A DNA stretch of 64,000 nt, from the NCBI GenBank assembly GCA_963723305.1, contig CAVRRT010000124.1:2857-66856 (forward strand), given 5' to 3'. Below are positions 33,591 through 35,360 of the stretch, one piece after another; position 1 is the stretch's first letter; the number at the start of each line of letters is the position of its first letter. The notes below the pieces were generated by a model, which saw nothing but the letters and a program-made list of their open reading frames with translations, did no database searches and was not told the DNA's origin. The position numbers and the translations under genes were made by a program. This stretch comes from an uncultured Pseudomonadota bacterium (GTDB taxonomy: Bacteria > Myxococcota_A > Polyangia > Fen-1088).

Positions 33591-35360
33591 CTACGCCTCG
33601 TCCTGGGTGGTGATCATCAAGACCTCGGCCGCGGTGGTCATGCCAGCCAGCACTTTTTGCGCGCCGTCCTCGCGCAGGGTCCGCATCCCTGACCGCATCC
33701 CCTGCGCCTTGACCGCCTGCGCGTCGGAGTTCTTGATGGTGAGTTGCCGGATCTTTTCGTCGATGGGGAGCAGCTCGTAGATCGCGGTCCGCCCCTTGTA
33801 TCCGGCACCGAGACAGACCGGGCAGCCCCCCTCCCGGGCGCGGAACAGCATCCCCGGCGGCGGAACCCAGGCCTCGTCCCCCTTGAAGTGCACCCGCCGC
33901 GCCTTGCCCTGCGCGAACAGCGCCGGATCGATCCCGATGCTGGCCAGATCCTCGGCCGCCGGTTGGTAGACCTCGCGGCATTCCCGGCAGAGGCGCCGGA
34001 CCAGCCGCTGGGCCAGCAGCGCCATCAGCGACGAGGCCACCAGAAACGGCTGCACACCCAGGTCGACCAGCCGGTTGATGGCGCCCGCCGCGTCGTTGGT
34101 GTGGATCGTCGAGAGCACGAGGTGGCCGGTCAGCGAGGCCTGGATGGCGATCTCGGCCGTCTCCCGATCGCGGATCTCGCCGACCATGATGACGTCGGGG
34201 TCGTGGCGCAGGAACGAGCGCAGCCCGCGGCGAAGGTCAGCTCGATCTTCTCGTTCACCGCCGTTTGTGAGATCCCGTCCAGCTGGTACTCGACCGGGTC
34301 CTCGATGGTGAGGATGTTGAGGTCGGGCGAATTGATCTTGGCCAGGCAGGCGTAGAGCGTCGTCGTCTTGCCCGAGCCGGTCGGGCCGGTCACCAGCATG
34401 ATGCCGTGCGGCTTGTGGATGAGCTCGTCGATCTGCCGCAGGTGATCGTCGCCGAAGCCGATGTCGGCCAGATCGTGCAGCACCGCCTCGCGATCGAGCA
34501 GACGGATGGTGACCCGCTCGCCCGCCTTGACTGTGGGGACGGTCGCGACGCGCATGTCGATGTCCTTGCCGGCGATCTTGCGGCGGATGCGGCCGTCCTG
34601 CGGCAGCCGCTTCTCGGCGATGTTGAGCCCGGCCATGATCTTCACGCGCGAGATGATGGAGGGCATGAACTGCCGCGGCGCCTGGCGCGACTCGTAGAGC
34701 ACGCCGTCGATGCGGTAGCGAACCTGCACCTCCTTCTCGCCCGGCTCGATGTGAATGTCGCTGGCGCGCTCCTTGACCGCGTTGAACATGCAGCGAGTTC
34801 ACCCAGCGGATGATGGGCGCCTCGTCGGTGATCTCCAGGATGTCGACCAGCTCCTCGCTCCCCCCTTCATCCTCCTCGTCCCCCTTCTCGCCGAGATCAC
34901 CACCCTTGTCGTGCTTGCGGCCATAGACGTCGTTGATGACCTCGAGGATCCTCTGCGCCGGCACCAGCACCGGCTGGACCTCGGCCTGAAGCTGCATGCG
35001 CAGATCGTCGAGCGCGCCCATGTCGAGCGGATCCGACATCGCCACCATCACCACCTCCCCCTCGCGCCTGACCGCCAAGAGGCGGTGCTGTTTGGCGAAG
35101 CCGATCGGAATCCCCGTCGCCAGATCGGTGTCGATGGCGTCGACCTTCAGCTCGGCGCTGTAGGCGATCCCCAGCTGCTTCCCCAGCGCCTGCAGCACCT
35201 CTTCCTCGGTGACGGCGCGCGCCTTGACCAGGATCTCGCCGAGGCGTCCCCCCTCCGCCTGCTGCGTGACGAGCGCCTGCTCGATCACGGCGGGCGTGAA
35301 GGTGGCGTCGCCTCCACGTTTGAGCTCGAGCAGCAGCTCGCCGATCCGTTTTCTTGCCAC
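33591..35360 (-). pseudogene. gspE: T2SS ATPase GspE interrupted by two compensating 1-nt indels (pseudogene or assembly error)
   Basis: GTG 35360 lies 6 nt after AAGGAG. N-part (to IIRWVNSL) and C-part ([31 protein letters not shown], CxxC...CxxC) share one frame. The middle ([16 protein letters not shown] ... Walker [10 protein letters not shown] ... [11 protein letters not shown]) is only readable in ORF 34130..34789. Confidence 0.8.

Follow-up and report, generated by a model that had tools for sequence, protein, structure and literature searches.

The gspE locus

This study examined a stretch of 64,000 nucleotides (nt), here called the window, that comprises positions 2,857 to 66,856 of contig CAVRRT010000124.1 (assembly GCA_963723305.1) and derives from an uncultured member of the Polyangia (Myxococcota), a lineage known only from metagenome-assembled genomes (MAGs) of soil and sediment. 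The gene under study is gspE, which encodes the ATPase of the type II secretion system (T2SS) and lies on the minus strand within a gsp operon; the coordinates of its parts and of the other features are collected in Table 1. A first-pass annotation, made from the letters of the window, had described two compensating single-base indels in gspE, and both were recovered at the same places by inspection of the sequence, by translated searching and by codon-usage frame tracking. One base is surplus at 34790/34791, and one is absent at about 34224. On the coding strand the first site reads ATC CGC TGG GTG AAC TCG CTG (IRWVNSL), then the additional C, then ATG TTC AAC GCG GTC AAG GAG (MFNAVKE). The second site, 567 nt downstream of the first, reads GAG CTG ACC TTC GCC GCG GG- CTG CGC TCG TTC (ELTFAAG-LRSF).

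The 189 codons that lie between these sites (...GPTGSGKTT...ELTFAAG) translate as GspE only in a second frame, and the N- and C-terminal flanks share one frame. When intact orthologues were searched against the window with tblastn, a count of frame changes that had been proposed as a check, three high-scoring segment pairs were returned in frames 1, 2 and 1, with breaks exactly at both indel points, and a codon-usage Viterbi frame tracker, run independently, switched frame at 34224/34225 and 34788/34789. The displaced segment contains much of the ATPase core, that is, the N2E region with its ASDIHIEP motif, the Asp-box region and Walker A, as had been claimed, and the Walker B and His box block is back in the main frame.

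Read as deposited, the main frame contains no stop codon and forms part of an open reading frame (ORF) of 686 amino acids (aa) at 33591..35651, the translation of which is GspE-like only at its two ends. The earlier description of an intact-looking ORF holds in that it is open from end to end; the real gene is only 589 codons long, and the remainder is an over-extension into gspD. The true start is the GTG at 35360, which is preceded by a ribosome-binding site, AAGGAG, 7 nt upstream and is common to all orthologues, themselves 589 aa long. An open wrong frame of this kind is unremarkable and a matter of chance, since the shifted frame is open over the same segment in 49 of 117 intact orthologues (42%), at a G+C content of third codon positions (GC3) of 0.89.

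Gene calling had also been expected to yield a GspE of full length but without function. For this record it did not do so: the 70,711-bp source contig (NCBI, ENA) has among its recorded proteins the 219-aa ORF of the middle segment (P0144) and a 198-aa C-terminal fragment starting MVGEIRD (P0162). Full-length as-is variants of 589, 638 and 642 aa were not on record, a look-up that did not extend to the 686-aa form with its TTG start. In a collection of 5.8 billion protein clusters, the as-is sequence found no protein covering more than 37% of it, and no entry that shared the frameshifted middle.

Identity of the repaired protein

Deletion of the surplus base and addition of one base at the gap gave a protein of 589 aa, referred to here as the repaired protein. 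It matched the Pfam T2SSE model almost completely (3-369/370, 462 bits) together with MshEN, compared with T2SSE 197-369 only (201 bits) for the as-is protein and T2SSE 18-203 for the 219-aa ORF. Against the NCBIfam equivalog model for GspE, TIGR02533, the repaired protein scored 655.1 bits (profile 3-486/486), above the cut-off of 630.25, and the as-is reading failed at 312.4 bits. The equivalog model for PilB (TIGR02538) was not satisfied by the repaired protein, which reached 563 bits against a cut-off of 675.65. The absence of GspE homology from the middle of the as-is reading in its own frame, another point raised at the outset, was thus confirmed by Pfam, by the equivalog model, by the cluster search and by tblastn.

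In the repaired protein the Walker A motif GPTGSGKTT occupies aa 325-333, Walker B aa 387-398 and the His box aa 410-424. The CxxC...CxxC pattern is present as CREC (aa 458-461) and CPVC (aa 513-516), and marks a predicted zinc-binding subdomain. The equivalog score, the full T2SSE core, the tetracysteine motif and the location within a gsp operon all identify the protein as GspE. It shares with GspE/EpsE the MshEN-type N domain, the T2SSE core, Walker A and B, the His box, the CxxC...CxxC motif and the operon setting, and differs from other members of the family in that the deposited gene is split over two frames. Its best matches among solved structures by raw sequence were not the Vibrio EpsE structures (1p9r, 4ksr, 4pht) but those of PilB of the type IVa pilus (5zfr, 3jc8, 5tsg). 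PilB is commonly the best structure match for myxobacterial GspE.

Comparison with orthologous loci

Comparison was made with 162 orthologous loci (given L numbers here) from GTDB representative genomes and JGI metagenomes, which were classed as short-read or long-read partly from record titles and contig names; the Microflora Danica (MFD) MAGs are documented as Nanopore (PMC12313526). The closest relative was JGI contig Ga0672854_0001119 (L163, L164), reached via members of protein clusters, which shows 96.2% nucleotide identity to the window over 30.3 kb (28026..58551). No contig more than 97% identical to the window was found among GTDB representatives or JGI metagenomes. The best match in the scan of GTDB representatives was about 92% identical over several kb and 93.6% within gspE, and the scan of JGI metagenomes gave at best 93.1% within gspE.

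All genes of the JGI contig are intact, including gspE (589 aa), gspK (472 aa) and a gene of 801 aa, and all frameshifting indels within genes between the two sequences fall in the window's copies of these three. In a DNA alignment of 16 sequences (the window and 15 orthologues) both gspE indels were private to the window. At the first site, relatives read CTG ATG (L001, L002, L003, L015), TTG ATG (L021) or, in the JGI contig, CTC ATG; the glycine codon at the second site is GGA in the JGI contig and GGG or GGC in other relatives. The comparison with related genomes that had been called for shows a single-frame gspE in the 96%-identical relative and in all short-read orthologues. A frame-broken gspE occurred in 3 of 16 long-read loci and in none of the 146 others (Fisher p = 0.0008). 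The three (L015, L021, L027), all of them long-read MAGs from the MFD set, carry private +1 insertions, no two of which affect the same codon. Across a syntenic block of 13.7 kb, the four closest MFD MAGs carried two or three private 1-nt indels each, and the short-read MAGs L002, L004, L006 and L059 carried none.

Several other long-read loci were damaged in ways of their own. In L166 (ENA ERZ25039552 contig_6335, 880,838 bp, with a Flye-type name) gspD, E, F, G, H, I, J and K are all broken, gspD lies in four frame segments, and the fragments have 74-96% protein identity to intact orthologues. In L003, gspF has a compensating +1/-1 pair of its own, the two sites 76 nt apart and aligned to window positions 33299 and 33375, so that compensated pairs recur among these assemblies. 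In L081 (ENA ERZ25039590 contig_64989), a gspH-like gene at 13500-14305 was called as 181 + 87 aa; it is a single gene in the window (265 aa), in L082 (262 aa) and in the JGI contig (267 aa), and the split is probably another long-read frameshift.

The orthologues also bear on the idea that the deposited sequence is functional, either through a ribosomal +1 shift followed by a -1 shift or because the as-is protein, with its 189-residue core replaced, is real. Its sole support is the absence of any stop within the as-is ORF, which would be expected in 42% of cases. Programmed frameshifting was rejected when none of the 162 orthologues was found to share either site. No slippery-type motif was evident at either site by eye (no formal motif scan was made). 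The middle of the as-is protein is an off-frame product rich in Arg, Ala, Gly and Pro; it has no homologue among the 5.8 billion clusters, and neither the GspE nor the T2SSE model matches this part of the sequence. On the conservation data, functional recoding can be regarded as effectively excluded.

Further frameshifted genes in the window

Two other genes of the window have broken frames. In gspK, a run of C residues is contracted to C4, the nearest relatives having C5 and most others C6, and this moves the last 128 codons into another frame; the public gene call is accordingly 401 + 71 aa, compared with 472 aa in orthologues. The second is the orthologue of the intact 801-aa gene, with seven frameshifting indels: +1 at 48262, 47630, 47431, 47029 and 46947, +2 at 46822 and -1 at 46700. 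Its frame hops 1>2>0>1>2>0>2 in the window, which was flagged by the frame tracker and by three-frame translation, and the public call consists of fragments such as one of 211 aa. The frame-hopping reading gave no Pfam matches, and its lesions were established instead by way of the intact JGI orthologue. With two lesions in gspE, one in gspK and seven in the 801-aa gene, there are about ten in the 30 kb compared, spread over three genes, and gspE is therefore no special case.

Census of frameshifting indels

A census of frameshifting indels covered up to 13 genes per locus, those of the T2SS operon and the neighbours upstream of it. Events offset by an opposite one within 30 nt were excluded, because nearby +1/-1 pairs in divergent stretches represent alignment noise, in short-read loci too. 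Eleven long-read loci (109 kb of coding DNA) yielded 30 +1 and 9 -1 events, all internal, and 16 short-read loci (140 kb of coding DNA) yielded 2 +1 and 8 -1 events, all at or near alignment ends. The difference in insertion rate between the two classes was significant (p = 3e-9).

The insertions showed a distinct preference for position. Of the 21 in long-read loci that lay outside homopolymers, 17 placed a second, synonymous base at a third codon position, where simulation predicted 0.43 (p = 4e-4). The window has four insertions of this kind, the gspE +1 included, and all four did so; its two further ones, at 47630 and 47431, are ambiguous with a one-base homopolymer expansion. The gspE site illustrates the pattern, as the JGI contig reads TCC CTC ATG, more distant relatives TCG CTG ATG, and the window TCG CTG C ATG: the extra base thus lies at a G/C-variable, synonymous third position of a leucine codon, with both bases present. 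The -1 lesions of the window all lie in short runs of 3-5 nt, that of gspK being C5->C4 and those of gspE and the 801-aa gene affecting the third position of a glycine codon in a G-run; the base missing from gspE is compatible with a contraction of GGGG to GGG. No obvious methylation-type motif was shared around the insertions by inspection.

These features can be compared with what has been described for Nanopore assemblies. The long-read MAGs of the MFD catalogue derive from Nanopore data alone, with Flye --meta as the assembler and a single round of Medaka polishing (Sereika et al. 2025, PMC12313526). The same group reported that indels persist in Nanopore MAGs below about 40x coverage and break up the genes called from them (Sereika et al. 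2022, PMC9262707). The lesions seen here resemble such errors (PMC9262707, PMC12313526) in being 1-nt indels, in affecting several genes per contig, in being private, in fragmenting gene calls, in not occurring where the operon was assembled from short reads and, for deletions, in lying in short homopolymers. They differ in that most are non-homopolymer insertions with a preference for synonymous third positions. This bias suggests a consensus failure linked to strain polymorphism rather than the classic error at long homopolymers.

Strain mixture could also have acted in another way, if the 567-nt middle of gspE had been patched in, as a single event, from the haplotype of a second strain, for example through a collapsed bubble, with an off-by-one error at each junction. 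The indels do bracket one contiguous segment and compensate exactly, and Flye is known to yield a single consensus from co-occurring strains that are about 97.6-98.7% identical (PMC8302730). Such a patch was rejected, since the middle and the flanks are equally divergent from seven relatives (2.8% versus 1.9% and 4.1% for the JGI contig, 6-8% for the others). A sliding count of differences over 200 nt showed no step at either junction, and isolated, uncompensated single indels of like type occur elsewhere in the window and in other MAGs. A haplotype patch is very improbable.

Selection on the affected genes

The ratio of nonsynonymous to synonymous divergence (dN/dS) was computed in the repaired frames against the JGI contig. 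It was 0.019 for gspE (49 synonymous and 3 nonsynonymous differences), 0.039 for gspK (31 and 4) and 0.093 for the 801-aa gene (105 and 34), with values of 0.016-0.24 for intact neighbouring genes, and the repaired frames of the three genes contained no stop codon. The out-of-frame segment of gspE differed from L081 by 42 synonymous and no nonsynonymous changes, a sign that purifying selection on its hidden frame is very strong. The synonymous divergence (dS) of the 801-aa gene was 0.21, about twice that of neighbouring genes.

These values bear on the view that gspE is a genuine and very recent pseudogene in a population that has lost type II secretion, with two indels in gspE, one in gspK, and the 801-aa gene also decaying. 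The indels are, after all, present in the deposited sequence and in the proteins called from it, the reading frame is disrupted as deposited, and two genes of one operon are hit. With genuine frameshifted pseudogenes gspE has in common the disrupted frame and the loss of a catalytic motif from the main frame; what it does not share with them is a relaxed dN/dS, stop codons, further lesions, or lesions held in common with the nearest relative. Neutral accumulation of indels is expected to go along with many unconstrained substitutions, as judged from indel-to-substitution ratios in general. Neither gspE nor gspK nor the 801-aa gene showed relaxed constraint (dN/dS 0.02-0.09) or the further degeneration by which pseudogenes are recognised, so the lesions, if real, would have to be of extremely recent origin. 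That three genes should have taken several independent hits in so short a time and be otherwise unaltered is not credible, and seven real frameshifts beside 105 synonymous and 34 nonsynonymous differences are likewise not credible for neutral decay.

The 96%-identical relative is, moreover, intact; all close long-read MAGs, but none of the short-read ones, have private lesions of an equivalent kind; and the lesions are found at synonymous third positions and in homopolymers. Real pseudogenisation is accordingly very unlikely, and the proposal that the ATPase had been destroyed in the organism most likely gives way to one of assembly error. Were the indels real, gspE would be a cryptic pseudogene in which a catalytic core of 189 residues is carried off-frame inside an open ORF, and would be missed by quality checks based on length.

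Likely origin of the indels

The gspE indels are best explained, with high confidence, as consensus errors of a noisy long-read metagenome assembly, probably Nanopore-only. The organism itself most likely has an ordinary gspE, intact and 589 codons long, in a normal T2SS operon. The source contig itself appears to be a long-read assembly of the Flye/Medaka type, to judge from its error profile, the source signature in the databases and its relatives. The third-position insertions of the census further suggest that both alleles were kept at sites that differ between co-assembled strains.

By this explanation, two independent consensus errors would have fallen in gspE. At the first site, the consensus would have retained both alleles (G and C) of a strain-variable CTG/CTC leucine codon, and at the second a short G-run that includes the third position of a glycine codon would have been called one base too short. 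Their opposite signs would restore the frame, and the GC3 of about 0.89 would leave the intervening wrong frame free of stops by chance. With about two-thirds of the window's errors being insertions and one-third deletions, two errors in one gene would be opposite in sign nearly half the time (a rough estimate).

Some observations fit less well with an assembly artefact. The errors are clustered over 30 kb (seven in one gene, two in gspE and one in gspK), which calls for an extra assumption such as local strain diversity; dS in the 801-aa gene is indeed twice that of the background. The gspE insertion lies outside a homopolymer, and so is not the textbook type of Nanopore error. The best comparator is only 96% identical and not truly conspecific, and the short-read and long-read classes derive in part from contig naming.

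The significance of these errors is mainly a matter of data quality, as a public MAG contig carries, in places, about one frameshifting consensus error per 3 kb. The presence or absence of a T2SS, counts of pseudogenes, and protein-family alignments that draw on this contig and on sister long-read MAGs such as L166 would be distorted, and annotation-based T2SS calls from L166 would fail. In a high-GC genome a +1/-1 pair can leave an ORF that is open from end to end. If the third-position bias of insertions holds generally, it would allow such errors to be flagged and repaired even where reads are not at hand. The biological importance is small, since GspE and the T2SS operon are almost certainly normal in the organism.

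The T2SS operon and other features of the window

The operon is complete, from gspC to gspL (Table 1). The window is collinear with L081 and L164 over the operon by alignment, and their labels comprise GspC (PDZ), GspD (Secretin), GspE, GspF (T2SSF), GspG (T2SSG), N_methyl pseudopilins, T2SSJ, T2SSK and a PilM_2-type GspL.

Table 1. Positions of the T2SS genes, the parts of gspE and the frameshifted genes in the window.
Feature	Position	Strand	Remarks
T2SS operon gspC-D-E-F-G-H-I-J-K-L	26659..38924	minus	complete; called genes and Pfam labels of syntenic L081 and L164
gspC	38010-38924	minus	
gspD	35371-about 37911	minus	
gspE, type II secretion ATPase gene	33591..35360	minus	589 codons; GTG 35360, stop 33591-33593; carries +1 and -1 as given
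Spurious upstream extension of the 686-aa ORF	35361..35651	minus	97 codons; overlaps the 3' end of gspD (stop 35371); outside gspE
Extra base (+1)	34790..34791	minus	window CTG C ATG; plus-strand 34790, or G at 34791 if aligned to the nearest relative
Second-frame segment	34224..34789	minus	189 codons (567 nt), part of the 219-aa ORF 34130..34789
ASDIHIEP	34742-34765	minus	within the second-frame segment
Asp-box-like ERVTIRLLD	34493-34519	minus	within the second-frame segment
Walker A GPTGSGKTT	34361-34387	minus	within the second-frame segment; out of frame as given
Missing base (-1)	34223..34227	minus	GCC GCG GG- CTG; gap at about 34224-34227; third position of a Gly codon
Walker B	34167-34202	minus	back in main frame (Walker B + His box block 34089..34202)
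His box	34089-34133	minus	back in main frame
Tetracysteine motif CREC...CPVC	33813..33989	minus	GspE C-terminal subdomain
gspF	32327-33586	minus	
gspG	31890-32321	minus	
gspH/I/J	29684-31868	minus	
gspK	28270-29687	minus	
gspK frameshift	28656..28659	minus	C-homopolymer contracted to C4; nearest relatives C5, most others C6
PilM_2-type gspL-like gene	26659-28260	minus	
Orthologue of the intact 801-aa gene	46588..48994	minus	seven frameshifting indels

Long ORFs of up to 835 aa lie on the plus strand at 32360-33613, 35518-38025, 33744-34355 and 34755-35531, opposite gspF, gspD and gspE. Such antisense shadow ORFs are typical of a genome of 69% GC, and they were classed as non-genic by the codon-usage tracker.

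Two intergenic tandem repeat arrays differ in length between the window and the JGI contig. The first (44675-44949) consists of about 17 copies of a 15-nt unit, TCAGGCCGCCCGAGA, and is about 140 nt longer in the window; the second (49949-50025) consists of about six copies of a 13-nt unit, CGTCTGTCTGGCG, and is 53 nt longer in the window. Both differences may represent real variable-number tandem repeats or errors of assembly length.

On the minus strand at 8271-10495, the tracker changed frame about 73 nt before the stop of the upstream ORF, with the junction near 9427-9586. The two ORFs concerned (8261..9586 and 9427..10725) overlap by 160 nt, which may reflect either a further frameshift or simply an ordinary junction between genes.

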